DNA of 64,000 bases from contig OZ024744.1 of assembly GCA_964016885.1 (NCBI GenBank), positions 50,282,001-50,346,000 of the forward strand. Reading direction: 5' to 3'. Positions within the stretch are counted from its first letter, which is position 1; every line of letters begins with the position of its first letter. The stretch is from Eledone cirrhosa (lineage: Eukaryota). A program made the position numbers and the translations under genes. The notes under the pieces were generated by a model that did not search any database, was not told where the DNA came from, and saw only the letters and a program-made list of their open reading frames with translations. Below are positions 1 through 25,214 of this stretch, piece after piece.

Positions 1-15
1 GAAGCTATCCCGGAT

Positions 16-1047
16 GTGATAGACTTCGATAACGGCACTCAACTGCCCATAAGTGTTGAGGGCAAACGCCCAAAATGCTTTCGCTGTGGATCGAAGACTC
101 ACCTCAGGGCCTTCTGCAACGAGAAGACCCTGAGAAAGGAGAAAACCCCCCTCCTTCCGAATCCGGCTCCACGGCTACCAGCAACAGGACAAGCGGCAAC
201 CAGGAACGATAGGCCCGTGGCACCCATACCCACTCCACGGAAATCAAAAACAGCAGCAACAGTGGAAATATTAACAACAACAACAGCAATACCAAATGCA
301 GCTGCAACAGAGACTCCAGTGCAAACATCACCAACAACAACAAGTGAAAGAGTGGAGCTGGTACCCCTCCCCGACCTCACAGAATCAGACATGGAGTGTG
401 AGGTGGGAGAGGGATGGCAAAAGGTCGTAAGAAGGCACAAACGCAGAAGCAGCGCATCGTCGCCTTTGAAAAGGGAGGAAAGAAATGAGAAAAGGGTAAA
501 GTCTACTGCAAAGAGACCCACAGCAGCAACAACACCAACACCATCACCACCCACACTAGCACCACCATCACCACCGGCGACAACCCCACCGCCAACAACA
601 CCTTCAACACAAGCACCAACATCGCAAACACAACAACAAAACACACACACCCAGCAACAACGACAAGAAAATAGCAGAACCACACCCCACCCCCAGAAAA
701 ACAAATGCACGGCAATAAATACACACAACAAGAAACTAATGACTTACATAATTGAACACACAGACATTTCACAACAGGACTACATAATACCAGCACCAAT
801 CAAAACGCCAAGTAACATAAGACTGCTAAAAATAGCACAGAAACAATACACAAACATTAAAACGAAATTCCCCAACGCAGTTGGTGATTTCAGGGACCTA
901 GGAGGAACCATCAATCGAAGAGTATACTCAGACATACTCTTAGAAGAGCCGACGACCAGCCGAAGGGACGATTCAACGGTCCCTTCACCAGACGATCAAG
1001 TGAAAAGGGATGTAAAAACCATCCCTCCTCTACCAAAAGTACGGTAA
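16..1047 (+). CDS. ORF1 (gag-like nucleic-acid-binding protein), C-terminal part
   Basis: CFRCGSKTHLRAFC (CX2CX4HX4C), then a Pro/Thr-rich low-complexity tract and a basic patch (RRHKRRS). Homologous to copy B ORF at 12064 (IDLNDG..CVVCGEGTHLKAFC). True start lies upstream of the window. Confidence 0.8.
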   Translation: MIDFDNGTQLPISVEGKRPKCFRCGSKTHLRAFCNEKTLRKEKTPLLPNPAPRLPATGQAATRNDRPVAPIPTPRKSKTAATVEILTTTTAIPNAAATETPVQTSPTTTSERVELVPLPDLTESDMECEVGEGWQKVVRRHKRRSSASSPLKREERNEKRVKSTAKRPTAATTPTPSPPTLAPPSPPATTPPPTTPSTQAPTSQTQQQNTHTQQQRQENSRTTPHPQKNKCTAINTHNKKLMTYIIEHTDISQQDYIIPAPIKTPSNIRLLKIAQKQYTNIKTKFPNAVGDFRDLGGTINRRVYSDILLEEPTTSRRDDSTVPSPDDQVKRDVKTIPPLPKVR

Positions 1048-1082
1048 GTGGTCTTTCCCATCTTTTCCACTCTATTTTAAAC

Positions 1083-4000
1083 ATGACCTCACTCAGAATA
1101 GGCAGCATAAATGCGCGTGGCTTGGGGTCGTCATGGAAGCAGGGTCACCTGCTCAACGACCTCAGGTCACTAAACATAGATGTAGTGGCCATCAGCGAGA
1201 CCAGAATCTCCGAAGCACGGGCCTTCGCACCGATCTTCGGCGGCTACGATGTGTACGCATCTCCCAGCCGTCCTGGATCGGGTGGAGGAGTTGCTGTGCT
1301 TTTTCGGAGAGGTTTGGATCTCGCCATACGGGCCATCTTCCTGGACCCAGAGGGTAAGCTGGTGGTGCTGGACGTGACCAGCGGAGACGGGCAAGCTTTC
1401 AGGCTAGTGGCCGTCTATGCCCCGACAGGAGCAGGGCGGCCTGATTTCTTCCGGCGTCTGGAGACCTTTCTTGGAACGTCCCGCTCTTTAGTGTTAGTGG
1501 GCGACTGGAACGGGATCTTAGATGCACGCTGGGACTGTGTGGGATTAGCGGATAGGGGTGGAGGGTGCAAGAGCCTCACCAACCTGCTCAGGCGTTTTGA
1601 ACTGTCTGACAGGTACCGATTGGATTTCCCGAATGTGCCAATGTGGACTTGGACAAACCGCATAGGGTCATCCAGATCATATCTAGATAGAGTATTTTGT
1701 AGGGAAATAGATAGGTCTAGCATAGGCTGTCCACAATTCAAGATAGTCAGCTACACGGACCACAAATTCGTGATCTGTGTGCTTGACTTAGATAGGCTTC
1801 ATAGACGAGGACCCGGCTACTGGAAGCTAAACGCGTCCTTACCAGCGCGCAAGGCCTACAGAGACCGGATTAGCGAACTAGTTAAGCGGGCGTTGACGGG
1901 GGCCATCGTCAACAACAAGTGGTGGTTTGCTCTGAAAAGAGCGATTAGAATAGAATCGATTAGGTTTAGTAAGGCTTTAGCAATAGAGAAAAATAGAGCA
2001 GAGGGAGAACTAGTTAGAAAAGTAGACGAGGCGCTTAGCAAAGGCATTGCGACCGACGTGCTTGCGGCGAAATTGGCCCTTGACCAATTCTTCAATGCAA
2101 AGCACGAAGGCTGCGTTGTCAGAGCAAGGGTGCGTGCTCTCAGACACGAGGGGACGAAAGCCGTTCAATGGGCCCGAGTGGCGGAGGCGCGTCGTGGCAA
2201 CAAAGCCACGATCCGGTCTTTGGTGGACCACGACGGGCGCATGCTACTCGATCCCGGGCAAATGTGTGAAGCTTTTCAGCGACACTTCGCTCAGCTGTTC
2301 GGGGGCAGCGGTGGGCCGGGTAGAGGGATGGACTTTAGTGTCTACCTCGACGGACTGCCGCGGCTCTCGGCCACTGAGGCGAAGTGTTGCTAAAAGCCGA
2401 TAACAGCCGCTGAAGTAAGGGAGGCAATGACTGGCTGCACAAGGGGTAAATCGCCTGGTTTGGATGGTCTGCCCTATGAACTTTACGTACAGATGCCAGA
2501 CTTGTTCGGAGGCCTCTTGGCGGACGTCTACTGCAACTGGCAACAGAACGGGAGAATTCCCAGTTCTGTGAGCCGAGGAGCGGTGGGACTACTGAGAAAG
2601 GATCCGAACAAGGGGGATAACATAGAAAATTTCCGGCCCATAACTCTGCTAAACACAGAGTTTAAGATTTTGGCCAAGGTGCTAGCAAAGAGGTTGGCGC
2701 TTGTCGTTGGTGGTCTGGTGGGAGAGGCGCAGACATGCGCCATTCCCGACAGATCCATCCACGACAACCTCCACCTCATGCGATACATCGTAGAGAGGGT
2801 AGCTAGGGAACCTGGCACGGGTGGGTCCTTGATCAATTTAGATCAGTCGAAAGCTTTCGATAGGGTCGACCATCGTTACCTAGCGGCAGTCCTGAGGGCG
2901 GCTGGCTTTGGGCCCGTCTTCAGAGGCTGGATCGCTGCCATGCACAGCGACATCTGCTCTGTGGTGAGAGTGAACGGTCACCTGTCGGAACCGTTCAACA
3001 TCATGCGCTCGGTCCGCCAAGGATGTCCCCTCTCGTCCCTCTTGTACGTATTGACTCTCGAGCCATTACTGCACAAACTGGAGACGTTGAGGGGGGTCCC
3101 GCGCGAACTAGGATGCGGAAGATCCGTATCAACATATTCGGACGATGTTACCGTAGTGGTGTCGAACGCCAAACACATCGAGGCGATCGGCACTACACTA
3201 AGAGAATACGAAGCGGTGACAGGAGCAATGATCAACCAGGAAAAGTCAGTGGGCCTGCAGCTCGGCACCTGGAGAGGCAGGTCCATGCCGTCCAACAGCG
3301 TCGTCGGACGCTGGACGGACGGACCGGTTAAATTGCTAGGGGTCTGGTTCGGTCCGGACCTCCAGACGGACAAAAACTGGGACGAGGTGACGAGCAGGGT
3401 GGCTTCTCTCACCCAGAAATGGGCCGAGAGGAAGCTATCCCTGAAAGGTCGAGCGGAGGTGGCTAACGCGTACATCGCGTCCGTCATCTGCTACCGCCTG
3501 ACCGTCGTACCTTGTCCTAAGCCTCGCCTGACTGTGCTGGAGCGTTTGCTCTTTCGCTTTTTGTGGAAGGGACGCGCTCCGATGGTCAGGCGGTCCATCT
3601 GTTGTCAACACCCGCTACGTGGAGGGCTGGGCATGCCGTGGCTGATGATGCGCAGGCACGCGCTCAGGCTACGACATCTCCACCTCTTCCTCGACGGTGA
3701 TCAGGTGTGGTCGCCGTTTGCTAGACGCGTGTTTCCCCAGCTCGTTTCCTTGACGGAGCTGCAGTCCTGGGTCAAGCGAAGACCGAGAGGGAGCGCCTGG
3801 AGACTGGAATGTCTTCAGGCGCTCACAGCCCTCGACCAATCGGGCAATGTGATCGGTGGAAACTCCACCTCGGCGTTCTATAGAGGATTAGTGGAGGGGA
3901 AGAGCGACGACGTACTTGGGGAAACTCTAGGCGTCGACGAAAATCAACTAACCAATCTCTTCGGAAGAACTTTCGGGCCAGGGCCTATGGACAACTTCCA

Positions 4001-4502
4001 GAAATCTCTGGCCTGGCAGTGCTACCGAGGAGCCTTGCCAGTTCGGGATAAACTCTACAGGCATGGAGGTGCCATCAGTCGGGCATGTCCGAGATGCGCG
4101 CAGGGCGACGAAACCGTCCTGCACGCACTCGTCCAGTGTCCGAAAATTGCTGACTTGTGGGTTTATGTCGAACACCTGCTGTCGCGTTTAGGACGGATCC
4201 GGCTATCATCTGAGTCCATCGTGAGGATTGCCCCGCCCTCCTCCTTTAGCCGGGAAGGGCAGGCAGTTTTTATCTGCCTGGTGGCCATGGCGAAAGAGAT
4301 AGTATGGTGGACACGTTTGAAAGGGCTGAAGACGAGCACTTACCTCTTCGGTGATGCTCTGATTGACTTTTTCAAATTTCATTTGAAAAGGAAAATCAGA
4401 GTAGAGAGGGAAGTGCTCTCTTCCCAGCATTTTGTTGAAAGATGGGTGAGAGAAGCAAGAATGGCCCGAGTGAATGGGCCTACTCTGAGCATATATCTGT
4501 AA
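1083..4502 (+). pseudogene. ORF2 (APE endonuclease, reverse transcriptase, C-terminal Zn finger) with one premature stop
   Basis: APE motifs SINARGL, ISET, VYAP, GDWN, YLDR, TDH; RT motifs KSPGLDG, FRPITLL, LDQSKAFD, VRQGCPLS, YSDD, LLG; CPRC-X8-H-X4-C. ORFs 1083-2393 and 2427-4502 share a frame and are split only by TAA at 2391-2393, where copy B has GAA. Confidence 0.92.
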
Positions 4503-4750
4503 ATTAAAGGTGGAAAACTGGGAGAGGGCACTTGCCTTGGTGGTCAGGGTCATTGTGGCTTTTTACTGGGCTTTCTCCACAAATGTCCCTCCGAAGTCTC
4601 CCCCCTATTGGGGAATTTTTCATTATTATTTTTTGTTACATCCTCTGTTTTTGTTTTTTACACGCAGAAATGCCCATTTGTACCGTCCTGCATTGTCCTG
4701 CACTGTCCTTAATGTCTACTTTATGTAAACCCTTGTGGTTAATAAAGAAA

Positions 4751-4791
<41 letters not shown>

Positions 4792-4808: not shown

Positions 4809-5180
4809 AAATAGAGAAAAATAAAGCAGAAGGAGAACTAGTTAGAAAATTAGACGAGGCGCTTAGTAAAGGCATTGCGACCGATGTGCTTGCGGCGAAA
4901 TTGGCCCTTGACCAATTATTCAATGCAAAGCATGAAGGCTGTGTTGTCAGAGCTAGGGTGTGTGCTCTCAGGCACGAGGGGATGAAAGCCATTCAATGGG
5001 CCCCATTTGGGGAATTTTTCATTGTTTATTTTTTTGTTACATCCTCTGTTTTTGTTTCTTTTACACGCAAAAATGCCCATTTGAAGGGTCCTGTATTGTC
5101 CTGTATTGTCCTTAATGTTTTACTTTGTGTAAACCCTTGTGGCTAATAAAGAAAGCATTATTATTATTATTATTACTATT
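4809..5180 (+). mobile_element. Internally deleted derivative of the Tx1-like element
   Basis: 4809-5003 matches copy A ~1982-2175; 5001-5156 matches the copy A 3' UTR (~4601-4752); ends in AATAAA plus (ATT)n at 5157-5180. Confidence 0.85.
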
Positions 5181-5769: not shown

Positions 5770-8700
5770 GTCCTTTGAGTCTCAGTCATTGATGTTAGTT
5801 AACTGGAAAGTTTGTTGAAATGAATATCAAGCCACTACCTGCAGCCTCAGATATGCAGGACGTATCAGAGGGTTCTTGCTGTTCCCAGCAAGCATACCTT
5901 TTGAAGTGTTCCAAAAAGCGGGGCTGCACTAATCTTCTTTAACTATCCTTGGAAACTCTTTGAGATAGTACCTAGTGCTCCTATGACAATCGGGACGACC
6001 TTGATTTCATGGCAGTTCCAAATCCTTTTTAACTCCCACTTTAAATCTGGTATCGGTTAATTTTCTCCCTCTCCTTTTCTTGCCCTCTCGTGTCAAATGG
6101 GCAGGCTACATCTACAATCAGGCACAATCTTTTTTCCTTGTCCAAAACCACCAGGTCAGGTCTATTGTGTTCCAGTTTCTTGTCCGTCTGTATCCTAAAA
6201 TCCCATAGCACCTTCACCTGATTGTTTTCTATCACCGACTCTGGCTTATGCTCATACCACTTCTCAGAATGTGGTAAATTGTTTACTTTGCATAGATGCT
6301 AGTGGATCACCCTGCCCATCATGTCTCCAGCCTTTATAGTGAGTCTGGGCTAGGTGTTTACACTCGGATACAATGTGAGCCACAGTCTCCTCTCTCTCTC
6401 CTCAGATCCTACACAGTGAGCTAGCCTCCTCCTTGTCAATATGGTGTTTCACCCACTTTGTTCTGAGGGCCTGCTCTTGCACAGTATTTACATTCCTTCT
6501 ATAGCTTTTTTAAGGTCTCCTCTTTTTAACAAGTTCCATGTCTGTGGATCTCTAAATTCCATTTTCTTAAAGAAGGTGCTATGAAGGGATTTTTCATGAA
6601 GGTTGCTCTTCCTCCTTGTTGTTATTTCCTCCTTGGACATCCCCTGGTCTATTGTCTTCTCCTTCAGTACAATTTTGAGCATTGGCTCCCTACTGTCAGT
6701 CACATATTTGTGTAGGTTGTTTTTCTCCATCTGAACACAGTCCTCTATGCTGATAAGACCTCTTCCACCTTCAGATATCTTTAAGTAGAGTCTATCGGCA
6801 TCACTCCTCTTTTGGAACATGTTGTAGATAGTCAATAGCTTCCTAATCTTCCTATCCATTTCTTTTCAGCAACATTCCATTTCAGAATTCCCGTATTGTA
6901 CCTAATACACAGCTCACTTATGACATTTAGATGTGATTTTAATACACTCCTTACTCTCCTAATGTACTCAGATCTTATCAATTCCTTCATTTTTTTTATC
7001 TTGATGTCATCTGCCTCCAGAACACATAAATATGTGTATCCCTCTTCAGTGTCAATTTCCTTTATCATCTCACCTGTTGGCACCTGGATTCCGTTGCTTC
7101 TGCTCAATTTACCCCTCTTCATCACTAGCACTCCACACTTATTAATACCAAATTCCATATATATATCATTGCTGAAAATACGGACAGTGTCAACAAGTAC
7201 ATCCAACTCCTTCTCACTCTTCCCAAAGAGTTTAAGATCGTCTATGAAGAGGAGGTGGTTGGTGGTAAGCTCTCCTTTTCCCAATTTGCATCCTGCTCTC
7301 ACTTTTCACAATATAATGGACAGGGGTATCAGGGCAAGGACAAACAGCAGAGGGGACAAACTATCTCCCTGGAAGATACCTCTCTTGATCTTCACGCCTC
7401 CCAAGGATTCGCCACCTGATGTTAACTCTGTTTTCCAGGACTTCATACTTTTACTCAACAACTGTCTGATGTTATCTGCCACCTTGAAGATCTCTAGGCT
7501 TTTGGTGATCCAAGAATGAGGTACCATGTCGAATGCTTTTTTGTAATCTATCCATCCCATGCCAAGACCAGTGTGCCTCCTCTTGCAATTCCTCATTACC
7601 ATCTTATCAATAAGTAACTGGTCCTTTGTACCACGGGACTTCTTTCGGCATCCTTTCTGTTCATCTGGTAACAAATTGTTTATGTGAAGGTGATGGTAGA
7701 TTTCCTCAGGCACAATCCTTGTTAACAGTTTCCAAATTACGGACAGACATGTGATAGGCCTATAGTTGGTAACATCATTACCCTTGATTCGGTCTTTCAT
7801 TACCAGAACTGTGGCACCTTTTGTCAACCACTCTGGTACTTCACCTGACATCAAGCAGTCATTGAACATGGTTGTCAGTTTTGGGTGGAGGGATGTTATA
7901 TTTTTAATCCAATACCCCTCACACATCTGGGCCTGGTGATTTCCAGTTGTTTAACTTTTTGGCCTGCCCTTTAGAGTTTCAACTGTGATACTCAAATCAG
8001 TTTGTTGGTGTGCCTGTTCACTAATCTCCTTCTGCACTGTCTCAATCCACACTGCCTGACTATTATGTTTAACATCCTGCTCCGATATTCCTCTCCAGAA
8101 TGTCTTAGTTTGTTCCGCCTCAGGGATCAAGTCGTTGCCTCTTTCTTTCCTCTCAAGCTGTCCAAACAAAATCTTCTGGTTGTTGTCAAACATGCGGTTC
8201 TGTCTATACTGACTGACTCTGCTCTCGTATCGCCTGATTTTTGCACTCTTTGCTGCAATGCGTTGCTTCAGTTCCTCTATGATAATATTTAGCTTTTTCC
8301 TCCTAGTTTTGTACTTTATTTCCAGTCTATTTTTAGTGTCTATGTTTTGTAGTGTCCCATTCAGTAGGGACTCAAGCTTTCCAATGTCATTTCTCATTTC
8401 CATGATTTGACCACTCAGTCGTTTCTTCCACCAAGGCTCTGATCTTTCTTGTTTGTTGTTTCCTCTCGCTTTTATACCAAGTAATTTCCTCACCGCATTT
8501 GCTGTTGCTTTGAGGATAGTGTTGCACTGGTGAAGGCTCCTCGCCTCAGGGTATGGGATGACTTTGTTTACCTTAACTGTTGTTTCTTTTAACTTTTTCC
8601 TGTCTACAAATCTTAGGTTCATAGGTTTTCCACTATCATTGTTCAATTCATCTACCACTAAGTTTAGGATATCAACCAAATCTTGTCCTAGCCCGTCAGC

Positions 8701-9300
8701 ATTCATCTCCTCAATGGCCGTATCTTTGTTCCAGGTATTATTTATTTCAGCATTCAGATCATTGTCTGCTTCGGATGGTTCCTCCGTTCTCTCAACCTCT
8801 TCACCTTCATTTCCCACTGGCTCGTTTGCCTGGCATACTCCACTCTCCATTTCCAAGCTAATCTCTCCGCTCAGTTCCTCCAGTTCCAGCTCGCTTATCC
8901 AGCCATTAGTTCTTATTACCCGAGCCTGCCCGGCCAATTTTTGTTCATCTAATTTAAATAGACCAATCTCGTTCCAGATGTTATGCATCCGTTTCCTATA
9001 GCCTTTCTCCTTGGGGTTACTCTTCAGGTAACATTGCATAACAGTTCTATTCAATTCTTTCGTCCAGTTGGTTCTTCTTCTTCCTCCGACACCAGCAGTA
9101 TTTGGTTGACAGCCAGGTCCCTGCTGCTGAGCCAGGGAGCACCTGCTGGGTGAGAGTCTGTCACATGACATTCTAGTGTCCACTTCACCGTTATTCGAAC
9201 TGTTTAGGTTCGACATTTAAACACTCTTATCGAGGATTGGTGAATGTATGGTTACATAACCACGGGTGATTTTTGTGTGGCACTATCACGCTGTAGACGA
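5770..9300 (-). mobile_element. R4/Dong-clade non-LTR retrotransposon (single ORF, RT plus restriction-like endonuclease), frameshifted
   Basis: Minus-strand ORF pieces 9216-7951 (N-terminal WTKELNRTVMQCY..YRKRMHNIW), 7926-7306 (YRPITCL, IDYKKAFDMVPH, GIFQGDSLSP), 7302-6832 (LLFIDDLKL), 6859-6488; CCHC remnant at ~6340-6420; RLE core RPDLVVLDKEKRLCLIVDVACPFD..EKINRY at 6235-6041; 3' end abuts (TAA)n. Confidence 0.88.
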
Positions 9301-10955: not shown

Positions 10956-13900
10956 GGCGACCTACGTAGGAAATCGTATTATCGTGAGCTCCGCAAAGAT
11001 ATGTTGTTTTCAGTTGTTTCAAATTGCCAGTTATGGAAAACTTTTATAAGTTCACATATATTGCTTTCTGAAAGGGACAGTAAACATGGACGGCTCTCAG
11101 CCACACAAAGCTGACAGCCTTTCTAACAAACTAACACCTCACATCAACACCACCATTGTAAACATTACTACGGTTGCCAACACTAAAAATATAAGCAGTG
11201 GCAATAATTTAAATTTGTCACATGCAGACATTCATTTCCCGCCATTACCAATAACTGCAAGTGTTAAAGCCAGCACCCCCACCATCACCACCACAGCGAC
11301 AACAGAAACAAAAAAAAAATTATTATCTTGTGACATCGAAATGGATTCACCCAGAATCGACTCTTCTATGCCGAATACCACTGACACCACAACCACCACC
11401 ACCACAACTGAAACTAAAAATAATAATAACAAAAATAACAATAACAACAGCAACAACAACACAATGAGAATAACAACAACAACATCAACACCAGAGCAAA
11501 ACAAAATGTGTCATTTGCCAAAGCACCCAAGTAAAGCGAAACAATCGAGGTAAGCCAGGATGAATTAAATGAAGCCAAGAGGATGGTTAAAAAAAGATGA
11601 GTACAGGGTCAGCTTCACCCCCCACCCACCCCCACCCCATCTAATAAAATAGAGCATCGGCACCTATGCACCGTGTTATATCGGACGATAAACACAAAGT
11701 CACGCAAAGTGGATCGGGCATCCGAGTCCCAGCTTTGGGACATGTGTGGGCAAAGAAAACCCACATCAGACGTGGGCAGAAATATGGAACCATGGACGTG
11801 TTCTTTGGAACCCCACAGGAAGCCAGAGAGCACTCCATGGCCCCATTAAGAAGTGACGAGTTCACACTCGTCCCAAGCTATTGTGGTCAGAGACTCGTGA
11901 AGATCAGGGTGACCCACATTCCGCCGGCCATCGAAATTCCCTGGCATCGAGGCCAACACTAAAATAATTGAGGTAACAAAAGAAAAGCAGGAGAACTGGT
12001 CCGGATCTGGGATGGAGCTCCTGATCCAAGCAGACCAAAAAAAACATTGAGGAAATTCCAAAGGTGATAGACCTCAATGACGGCAGCCACCTCACAATAA
12101 TCGTCGAGAGTAGAAGGCCTAGGTGTGTCGTTTGTGGTGAAGGAACCCACCTAAAGGCTTTCTGCCCTCAGGCTAAAATGTTGAGGCCACCTCTCCTACC
12201 CACCCCAGTGACTCAACCATCAACACCACCAGCAGCAGAAATGGCAACAACAACTGTAGCAGCAACAACAGAAGCAACTGTATCAGCAACAACCCCAGCA
12301 ACAGTAGCAAAACCACCACCACCACCACCACCACCACCACCACCACCACCACCACCACCACTCACCGTGCCAGAATTAGCACTAGCGCCTCCACCATCCA
12401 CCACGCCACAACCAAAACCAACGCCTGTGGATGATTTTCCACTCTCCGACCTATCGCAACTGGAGACAGATTGTGACGATGAGGAGTGGGAAACTGTAAC
12501 AGGAAAAAAGAAAAAAAGAAAAAGAACCCAAAAAAGAAAAACATTCTCTTCCTTCCTTCCCCCTCCAAAAACAAAATGCAGGGGGAAACAAATAAACAAA
12601 CAATCAAAAAGGTTAAGACAGGTATGCCACCACCCACACCAGCATCACCAGCCCTATCACCACAAACACCAACACCATCACCATCATTAACCCCAACACC
12701 ACCATCACCAACACCACAAAAATCACTAAAAAGCGAAACAGAAACAAACCCACAACAAACGCAAACAAAACAAAACAACCAAAACGATACACACTACACA
12801 GCATTAAATTTGAACAACCAATTATTACACTAGGGTCATCCAACACAACAGCCGCATCACAGAAAAAAGACTACACAACACCCCAAAAATTCACACCGCC
12901 TCCACACATACAAATCACTCGCATCACACAGAAAACGTACACGACACTAAAACAAAAACTCCCCAAGGACATCGGAAACTTCCGACAAACACTCTCCAGG
13001 AGGATTTATAAGGACATCCTTCCGGAGGAGGCCACAGGCAGTGAGAAGGATGGAGAAACCATCCTTCCTCTACGAGAAGTGAGGTAAGTGGTCTTTCCCA
13101 TCTTTTTCCACTCCTTTTCAACATGACCTCACTCAGAATAAGCAGCATAAATGCGCGTGGCCTGGGGTCGTCATGGAAGCAGGGCCACCTGCTCAACGTC
13201 CTCAGGACACTAAACATAGATATGGTGGCCATCAGCGAGACCGAAATCTTCGAAGCGCAGGCCTTCGCACCGATCTTCGGCGGCTACGATATGTACGCAT
13301 CTCCCAGCCGTCCGGGATCGGGGGGAAGAGTTGCTGTGCTTTTTCGGAGAGGTTTGGATCTCGCCATACGGGCCATCTTCCTGGACCCAGAAGGTAAGTT
13401 GGTGCTGTTGGACGTGACCAGCGGAGACGGGCAAGCTTTCAGGCTAGTGGCTGTCTATGCCCCGACAGGAGCAGGGCGGCCTGATTTCTTCCGGCGTCTG
13501 GAGACCTTTCTTGTTTAATGTTAGTGGGCGACTGGAACGGGATCTTAGATGCACGGTGGGACTGTGTGGGATTAGCGGATAGGGGACAAGGGTATAAAAG
13601 CCTCGCAAACCTGCTCAGACGGTTTCAACTCTCTGACAGGTACCGATTGGATTTCCCAAATGTGCCAATGTGGACTTGGTCAAACCGCATCGGGTCATCC
13701 AGATCATATCTAGATAGGGTATTTTGAAGAGAAATAGATAGGTCTAGTATAGGCTGTCCACATTTCAAAATAGTCAACTACAGGGACCAAAAATTCGCGA
13801 TCTGTGAGGTTGACTGACTTAGGCTTCATAGACAGGGACCCGGCTACTGGAAGCTAAACGCGTCATTAACAGCGCGCAATTCCTACAGAGACCCGATTAG

Positions 13901-22329: not shown

Positions 22330-24190
22330 GAAATCTGTAGAAGGCTTGGTTAGCCTCAAGCAGCGCACAAGGGATGGTGAGGAAGTATGTCTACCTACGG
22401 ATAAGTCTGGTAGGATGTCAATAGATAGCATGCCAAACTACATCAAGGCTATGCAACCCCACATCACCAACACGAGCGAAATTGCACAGCAAACACACGA
22501 TGGGTGAGATAAAATCCTCAACGCTCACATGATGATGTGGACCGACATCCTAAAGCCAAGCAGACGCACTGTCAACAACTTCCAGGCGTCTAACAATGGC
22601 ATACCACCCTTGTATGGGCTCCGCAAAGACCACAAGACAGTCGAGGACCAACAGGACCCCCAACAAGATCCGTATGCGGAGCAAATATAGCTAGCAACTA
22701 CAGGATCTCCTACTTCCTCTCAATGGTTATACGCCCCATAATCAAGATGTCCCCAGATGTATGTGACAGTACAGAGGACCTCCTCAGCAGAATCAGTGAG
22801 TGCAACAAAAACAGGAACCTATCCAACTGCATAATAGGCAGCATGGATGTGGTATCACTGTACCCATCCATTAACATTGATTTTGCTGTGGGAAAATGTG
22901 TGGAGATGATCATTGAGAGTGAGGTGGAGTTCTGCGACATCGACACAGACGAACTGGGCCTCCTACTTAGACTTACCTACGACACTGACTACCTAGACAG
23001 CCATGACCTTAGACGTTTATGCCCCAGTAGACCCATAAGAGGTAGACCCCCCACCATAACCTCAATGGCTAAAAAGACTCCCATGGGAAGGTGGATTGGG
23101 TGGATCAAAGCTATACGGACCCCCCAAAACAATGATCAGGTAAGAAAAATGGTCGCACATGCAATAGGGGCTAGTATCAAAACTACCCTAAAGGGCCACA
23201 TATTCAAGTTCAACAAGAAGATCTACACCCAAAATGAGGGAGCAGCCATTGGCGTCAGCATAGCTGGTGATGTTGCCAACCTTTTTATGGTATGGTGGGA
23301 AAGGAGACTTAAAGATCTCCTTAATGAGAGCTCCATAGACCTCATCATGTACTCTCGTTACGTAGACGATATCAATATAGTTATAAGAACATCCCCACTA
23401 GAGAGCACTAACAAGTTTGATTTAGAACGTAGCACAATGGAAAGCATCCAGCAGATAGCTAATTCCATACACCAGAGTATAACTGTAACTATCGATTACC
23501 CTTCCAAACACCCTAACAATAAACTACCTGTATTAGACACGGAACTCTGGATTAACACTAAAGACGAGAGAGCCCAAATTCTCCACTCACACTATGCTAA
23601 ACCCATGGCCTCCAAATACCTGATACTCAAAAACTCAGCAATGTCCAGTAGTGCTAAGTTTAATATTCTGATCGCAGATTTGGTACGAGTGATGAAGAAT
23701 GTGTCCCGCATGTGCGACCCAACAGAAATGGAAAGACACATCCAACACTTCATCAACCGCATGCAATTCTCTGGCTACAACCAAAGAGACAGAGTCAGAG
23801 TATACGAAGGAGCCATGGAGAAGTATAAGACCTTCATAGAACTGGACTGGAAAGGAATTTGCCCATTATACAGGAGCAAATCATGGAATAGCTTAGATAG
23901 GGCTAGACATAAGATAGGGAAAGCCACCTCATGGTACGACAACCAGAGATACCAGAGTGTCATGTTTGTGGACGCTACCCCTGGAGGGAAATTAGCTAAC
24001 CAGTGTAGAAAGGCCCTGAGAAAGACCCACTTAAAGATTAAGGTGGTAGAAAAGCCAGGAACCACCATAAAATCCCTGATCAGCAAAACCTTCCCTTTTA
24101 AGAAAACCACTGTACTAATAAGAAATGTATCATATGTAAGGCAAACCCCCGGATAAACTGTAAAACTAGAAACGTAGTCTATAGCATATA
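22330..24190 (+). mobile_element. Penelope-like element fragment 1 (RT plus linker, cut at the start of GIY-YIG)
   Basis: PTDKSG; PPLYGLRKDHK; GSMDVVSLYPSI; YTQNEGAAIG; YSRYVDD; LPVLD; FVDATPGGKLA..KVVEKPG; frameshifted C-X4-CXXC..CKTRNVVY. Confidence 0.85.
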
Positions 24191-25214
24191 GTGGTGGTGC
24201 TACCTACGTAGAAGTTGTTGCATTTGTCACACTCTAGAATGTATACGACGTAAGCCTGGTGGCATAGGTCTGTGTCGTTGATGTAGCAGTTGGCTAGTCT
24301 GCAGCAGTTGTCATGTCTGGTGGAGTGTCTTTTGGTTAGCTGTCCGCGTAGAGAAGGACCTGAGTGGGCCAGTTGGATATCTAGTCCCTCTCGTCTGATA
24401 GCTCTGCGGATGGCTGTTGTTGTTTCTTCACTGAAGTGTGGGAGCTTCAGGAAGCAAGTGTTAGTGCCTCGGGTGTGGTGTCCTCTGTTCTTTCTGGCAC
24501 GGTTTGTGGTGGATGTCGTGTATCCGTTCAGTTTGAGTACTTCCAGGAAATGTGTGGTGTGTGTGTCTCGGTCTCTAGCGTCGGTGCATTTGTTTCGGAT
24601 ACGTGTTAGTTCGTTCCTTATGTATCCGAACTTAGCGCCGGCTGGGAGGGCCGATCTGAAATGTACGAACAGGTCCCTGCTGGCGGCTTTTTTATAGAAG
24701 CAGGTGTGGATGTTGCCTTTCTCTGTTACCCTGAGTTGGAAGTCCAGTAGGGATAGGGATCCGCGGTCATCGGGGTGTTCCATGCTGAACTTTATACTGG
24801 CGTCCATGCTGGAGAATGTTGTGCATATTTTCTCTGCCTCCTCACCGGATGATGTAAGGATGAGTATGTCATCTACATATCGGGTGAAGAAGGTATGGGA
24901 ATGGCAGGTGTTGAGGGCTCGGCATTCTAGCTGGTTCATGTAGGTGATGGCCAATCGGCCCGATAGGCTGGATCCCATGGGTAATCGTGTTGTCTGTCTG
25001 TATGTGTGGTGGCGGAAGGTGAAGTACGTGTTGTCTATTGTGAAGGACAAAGCTGGTGTATGTCCGTCGGGTGAAGGCCGTAGCAGTGGATGTCCTCTGC
25101 GACCACGCAGTCCGTCAATAAATCGACAGCTGGATGAGCGGGGACTGTAGTGTAGAGGGAGACAATGTCGAGGCTAAAGGCGTATCTATTTAGTTTAAGT
25201 TGTTCTGGCTGACT

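Follow-up and report, generated by a model that had tools for sequence, protein, structure and literature searches.

In EVD and plant Ty1/Copia elements, a conserved U1 site at the end of the structural gene initiates the splice that yields a short GAG RNA and also blocks premature termination of the unspliced RNA; the donor is conserved more strongly than the acceptor, and the unspliced full-length RNA serves as the template (PMC5580714). EVD is, however, an LTR element, and the splicing and early polyadenylation demonstrated there create the GAG stop (PMC5580714), whereas the element described below is a LINE, known here from genomic sequence, in which the stop already lies within the donor. 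The LTR element Ogre carries a stop-containing spacer with donor-like ends between two ORFs, but this spacer has a mean length of 274 bp and its partial splicing has been shown (PMC6317226); here, the corresponding interval is 38–67 nt long, and does not conserve the reading frame, and ORF2 has an ATG of its own. Human L1 SpIREs result from splice sites inside an L1-clade RNA, and these spliced RNAs do retrotranspose, although they are dead ends (PMC5860796); in contrast, no spliced copy was found in the present family, and its donor is conserved rather than accidental. Penelope-like elements have retained introns, but they belong to another class of retroelements, have long introns and use an unusual transposition route (PMC8557442). 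Kibi and Koshi of the Tx1 clade share two ORFs, an APE-RT protein and insertion into microsatellites with the present element, while their targets are (TC)n or (TTC)n instead of (ATT)n, and an inter-ORF donor is not among the features described for them (PMC4494074). A survey of the inter-ORF regions of vertebrate L1s notes T-rich spacers and possible IRESs, and the string "splic" does not occur in its main text (PMC5381506). Neither a conserved donor at the ORF1 stop of a LINE nor a Copia- or Ogre-like spliceosome strategy in non-LTR elements was found in our literature search, which lay mostly outside subscription papers, Repbase Reports and supplements.

The window, a stretch of 64,000 nt from Eledone cirrhosa (contig OZ024744.1, positions 50,282,001 to 50,346,000), contains two copies of the element, A and B, both on the plus strand. 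The element is about 6.05 kb long, and its intact copies encode an ORF1 of 697 aa and an ORF2 of 1139 aa. Copy A begins with the 3' half of ORF1 (1..1047; the full ORF of ~697 aa would start ~1,040 nt ahead of the window), whose translation includes a CCHC zinc knuckle (76–117) and which had no Pfam match. A pyrimidine-rich, AG-free spacer (1050..1082), ending in AAC, precedes ORF2 (1083..4502), which encodes an APE endonuclease, an RT and a zf-RVT domain (Pfam matches Exo_endo_phos, RVT_1 and zf-RVT) and, when compared with solved structures, matches human L1 ORF2p best (E 4e-51), with R2 at 3e-20. The 3' UTR contains a T-rich tract ending in CAG (4643..4667), followed by AATAAA and an (ATT)n tail or target repeat (4741..4790). 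The separate ORF1 with a CCHC knuckle, the ORF2 with APE, RT and C-terminal zinc finger, the 3' AATAAA and the repeat tail are all features of L1/Tx1 non-LTR elements. Neither copy in the window is intact: ORF2 of A, open in other copies, is interrupted by a premature TAA (2391–2393), and B is split into several frames, so that both are dead.

At each of the 11 listed 5' ends, from 10 places, the element is preceded by an (ATT)n repeat; a repeat target is a trait of the Tx1 clade, and the finding agrees with membership of its target-specific group (PMC4494074). Intact copies often stand in head-to-tail arrays, from which the family looks young. In the arrays at L049–L051 and L054–L055 (C1, 55.4 and 56.2 Mb), the 6.05-kb copies have ORF1 and ORF2 intact, and every copy is inserted in the ATT tail of the preceding one. 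A second donor-like site, AAG/GTAT, was seen at L139:75-95, about 35 nt from the 5' end of the element, and is common to the listed 5' ends. A metagenome scan revealed no relatives of the element.

The earlier note had proposed that 53 nt at the ORF1/ORF2 junction form an intron whose removal fuses the two ORFs in frame. Its description of the junction was accurate: in copy A the GT lies at 1044, the ORF1 stop TAA at 1045–1047 and the AG at 1095–1096, 53 nt in all; in copy B (junction at 13081..13136) the GT lies at 13084 and the AG ends at 13136; and removal of the 53 nt keeps the frame in both. The ORF2 ATG (1083 in copy A, 13123 in copy B) falls within the proposed intron. The length of 53 nt is indeed shared by A and B, but B proved to be a copy of the 52-nt type carrying an additional T. 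In a sample of 30 copies taken in genome order, 15 had the 52-nt and 14 the 53-nt spacing, and one had lost the donor. Length modulo 3, one of the features to be checked for conservation according to the earlier note, is therefore not conserved, and it is in any case irrelevant to the spliced frame. The donor was kept, whereas acceptor and frame were not kept in the sister families with intact ORF1. The 53-nt subfamily itself looks recombinant, its ORF1 being MAVF-like up to the DDQ codons and continuing with the tail of the 52-nt subfamily; this ORF1 tail motif (window 960–1043; L090, L095) occurs at ~2,486 places.

The motif that covers the ORF1 stop (1041..1049) has 8 of 9 possible U1 matches in copy A and 9 of 9 in the 52-nt subfamily, and is the top-scoring donor of the whole element. 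A 19-nt ORF2-start motif occurs at 4,832 genomic places, of which 4,501 have GTAAGT 40–64 nt upstream. Sister families, named like the window family (MTSL) after their ORF2 starts, were found with looser patterns and fall into three ORF2 clades. Seventeen hand-picked family representatives from this one genome, with 61–96% identity at the ORF2 start (53–64% for one long-branch copy), were compared; the donor, located on or just before the ORF1 stop, has at least 7 of 9 U1 matches in 16 and at least 8 in 12 of them. Control windows of 45 nt (n=1,020) reach at least 7/9 in 7.1% and at least 8/9 in 1.7% of cases. Since the representatives are related by descent, this result indicates conservation and not 17 independent events. 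At least 8/9 matches were also found in 24 of 30 loci drawn by protein search, and two further families, with ~60% amino-acid identity, retain the donor as GTAGGT. Within the motif, the G at position -1 is invariant and positions +3 to +6 are 76–88% conserved, whereas the ten coding bases from -4 to -13 are only 35–53% conserved. The variants GTAAGT, GTGAGT, GTAGGT and GTAATT match the kinds found in host donors, which have 6–9 matches to the 5' splice-site consensus as against 8–9 in the element.

The distance from donor to ATG ranges from 24 to 53 nt across families, and the flanks on both sides change in sequence and length across the three clades while the motif is retained. On the ORF2 tree (18 rows, the placement of the long-branched young MANI row being unsure), the motif persists through no fewer than three changes of phase between 2 and 1, whether the stop is TAA, TGA or TAG; the phase calls are backed by ORF1 frames of over 400 open codons in MTSL, MAVL-S, MAVF, young MANI and MDVL only. 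As it survives phase switches and accommodates all three stop codons, the motif is kept as nucleotides and not as codons. Taken from these alignments, the view that the donor is a conserved 5'-splice-site-like motif under selection is supported.

Within the window clade, the donor is predicted to be partly hidden by a hairpin (1043..1066) in which it pairs with the pyrimidine spacer. The predicted helix has 7 of 9 pairs in the window family and 9 of 9 in the sisters MAVL-S and MAVF. Across 28 sequences of the clade, 96% of 252 cells are paired, compared with 32–55% in slid controls, the model having been drawn from the same mutually related sequences that were used to score it. Five of the nine pairs vary on one side without being broken, and one shows a compensatory change. 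When the whole region was folded, only 4 of 18 families had z-scores below -2.5, the window family having a weak -1.5. In other clades the pairing partners of the donor differ and the letters GGTRAGT are constant. A donor that is stably hidden binds U1 poorly.

The acceptor is far less regular than the donor, as in elements of the EVD type, where the donor at the end of the structural gene is likewise the better conserved site. The AG of ORF2 codon 5 (1095..1096) stems from the Leu-Arg codons at the start of the endonuclease. By a model trained on host acceptors it scores 5.0, below 16 of 17 host sites, while ranking fourth among the 262 AGs in the element; it has 3 T residues at -16 to -3, compared with 7–11 in host acceptors. 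Sister-family acceptors score mostly negative with the same model, whose training set is small. The host sample consisted of 17 myosin introns (20 exon pairs, minus 4 with a missing or unclear exon between, plus 1 internal intron), which are 89, 90 and 93 nt long at the short end and reach 5,419 nt. The element introns implied by the fusion, of 38–67 nt, are all below this minimum, and the earlier note's own test, a host minimum well above 53 nt, thus goes against it in this small sample. MTSL combines a phase 2 donor with a first AG that keeps the frame; MAVL-S, MAVF and young MANI, whose ORF1 frames run open through 413–486 codons, combine a phase 1 donor with a first AG that breaks it. No AG near the start keeps the frame in young MANI or in three of the four listed donor-bearing MAVF copies, and codon 5 of MASLK lacks an AG; in some phase-1 families, a TAG 5 nt further on is in frame. 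Thus, neither the supposed conservation of the acceptor, absent in MASLK and out of frame in the three ORF1-intact sisters, nor the restoration of one frame in all active families holds. The mixed tally of frames among sister families is as expected by chance, because several AGs lie within the first codons (an in-phase YAG occurs within 36 of 142 eight-codon ORF2 windows, 25%).

Copies lacking exactly the 53 nt, which the earlier note had suggested looking for, were sought with an acceptor-side pattern that catches any copy with replaced acceptor bases, an exact splice included. The bases needed were present in 28 of 30 sampled copies, so that ~4,500 copies (4,832 x 28/30) were testable; no such copy was found among them, which places the upper bound near 0.07%. 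The nine places caught comprised six point-mutated or one-base-deleted copies, two small deletions and one long deletion that misses a GT-AG cut by one base. A mirror pattern on the donor side (motif in 26 of 39 loci) gave eight places, none joined at an AG, and the largest sister family (1,227 loci; motif in 14 of 30) gave no place of the spliced type. Locus L039 (C28, 29.39 Mb) was considered as a spliced copy and rejected: it is a rearranged copy whose deletion starts near a donor-like site within ORF1 (window position 496), ends at the codon-5 AG and differs by one base from an exact splice. Cis preference is established for L1. Since a fusion RNA would encode the RT in cis, the absence of intron-less copies counts against the fusion. 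About 2% of full-length human L1s are spliced (PMC5860796); for Penelope-like elements, splicing is still possible without intron-less copies (PMC8557442), so the argument is not absolute. A search for long fused proteins with ORF1, a weak test, found none. In contigs from four read sets of unrecorded kind, X2 and X3 span the spacer without a gap and one X6 contig passes the donor to 1109; no donor joint is seen among the contigs shown (15 of 50 and 15 of 52), but such contigs lose rare forms and carry no strand and hence count neither for nor against splicing.

The explanation that we favour, tentatively and at slightly less than an even chance, is drawn by analogy with EVD: the donor may be a docking site at which U1 snRNP protects the full-length unspliced RNA, tuned by the hairpin. 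Bound U1 would keep the full-length bicistronic RNA from being cleaved or terminated early, the hairpin would set how often U1 binds or a splice is completed, and any spliced or early-ended product would be ORF1-only and, lacking ORF2p in cis, would not return to the genome. ORF2 is likely made from its own AUG on the unspliced RNA rather than as a spliced fusion; nearly all families retain an ATG in good context, which could be reached by termination-reinitiation across the 24–53 nt spacer, as has been proposed for ORF2 of L1 and SART1 (PMC5972666). Against this explanation, neither AATAAA nor ATTAAA, as a poly(A) site for U1 to silence, occurs in ORF2 of copy A downstream of the donor, the nearest such hexamers standing at 714 and 856 on the upstream side and at 4503 on the downstream side; some sister families have a poly(A) hexamer 840–1,120 nt into ORF2. 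Two other roles were considered and rejected: an internal promoter for an ORF2-only RNA, since 93% of ORF2 starts keep the upstream donor and truncations do not pile up, and protection of the element from HUSH by an intron, since short introns protect little and the spliceosome is dispensable (PMC8770142). In the MANI copies L071, L155 and L156, a strong host-like acceptor (score 16.3) lies only 34 nt past the donor and 7 nt ahead of the ORF2 ATG; it could serve an upstream donor and yield an ORF2-only RNA in that family.

Readings in which the donor is actually spliced have to be weighed against U1 docking. It is possible, if on the unlikely side, that the spliceosome controls the ORF1:ORF2 ratio, with the hairpin-masked donor being used to splice a subgenomic RNA, either ORF1-only or, in phase-2 families, a fusion, and the unspliced RNA alone being copied back. 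A specific long intron, joining the donor to the 3'-UTR acceptor at 4667 and removing ORF2 to leave an ORF1-only subgenomic mRNA that is not retrotransposed, is unlikely. This CAG is the joint best of the 262 AGs downstream of the donor (score 8.6), and a stop in the donor phase (4726–4728 in copy A) precedes AATAAA by 15 nt in 19 of 21 tails, whereas 16 of the 21 are free of stops in the other phase; however, a T-rich 3' UTR lifts the score of any AG, the phase-1 sisters MAVL-S and MAVF lack the CAG, with the alternative 3'-UTR acceptor being stop-free in their phase in 9 of 9 tails, and no genomic copy with the donor-to-4667 joint was found, although few would be expected. The model of the earlier note, in which a 52–53 nt intron is spliced from part of the transcripts to give an Ogre-like ORF1-ORF2 polyprotein, appears quite improbable. 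It can appeal to the in-frame junction of the window family and the in-frame codon-5 AG of other phase-2 families, to the high rank of that AG, to the Val/Leu-Arg at the ORF1 end of three clade members, which mimics the Leu-Arg of ORF2, to the TAG 5 nt further on in some phase-1 families, and to the precedent of retroelements that keep introns, such as Ogre (PMC6317226) and Penelope-like elements (PMC8557442). Against splicing of this kind stand the lack of intron-less copies when set beside human L1, the out-of-frame first AG of three sisters with long open ORF1s, introns shorter than all and an acceptor weaker than 16 of the 17 host examples measured, and the retained ATG of ORF2.

Two further readings dispense with U1. 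If selection acted on a stop-codon hairpin that couples ORF1 and ORF2 translation, the likeness to a splice donor would be incidental; in several families, hairpins are predicted at and ahead of the stop, and termination-reinitiation in SART1 and mammalian L1 (PMC5972666) offers a parallel. Yet the pairing partners change between clades while GGTRAGT stays, the variation of the motif tracks the donor consensus, and the UGGGA reinitiation motif was absent from the 160 nt before the ATG in all 8 families tested, which makes this reading doubtful. Common descent and recombination at the ORF1/ORF2 junction might alone have retained the motif, given the relatedness of all families and the exchange of ORF1 sequence seen close to the junction in the 53-nt subfamily; the turnover of its flanks, with spacings of 24–53 nt across three clades, renders such neutrality highly improbable.

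Although the fusion intron is unlikely, the claim brought to light a conserved signal that is real, unexplained and easy to test. A selected donor in an element that loses whatever gets spliced out points to U1-based control at the ORF junction, and bears on how bicistronic LINEs outside mammals produce plenty of ORF1p with little ORF2p and preserve full-length RNA. The nine-base motif is a convenient target for mutation in a young family that numbers thousands of copies, intact ones among them, and it could act as a cryptic donor where copies land in host introns.

The remainder of the window includes other repeats. Other broken RT-like ORFs are present on the minus strand at 6832–9216 and 22594–25173, appearing by eye to be RTE-like and Penelope-like, and a 30-kb minisatellite of 30-nt units, with very long open frames on both strands, occupies 26800–57500.
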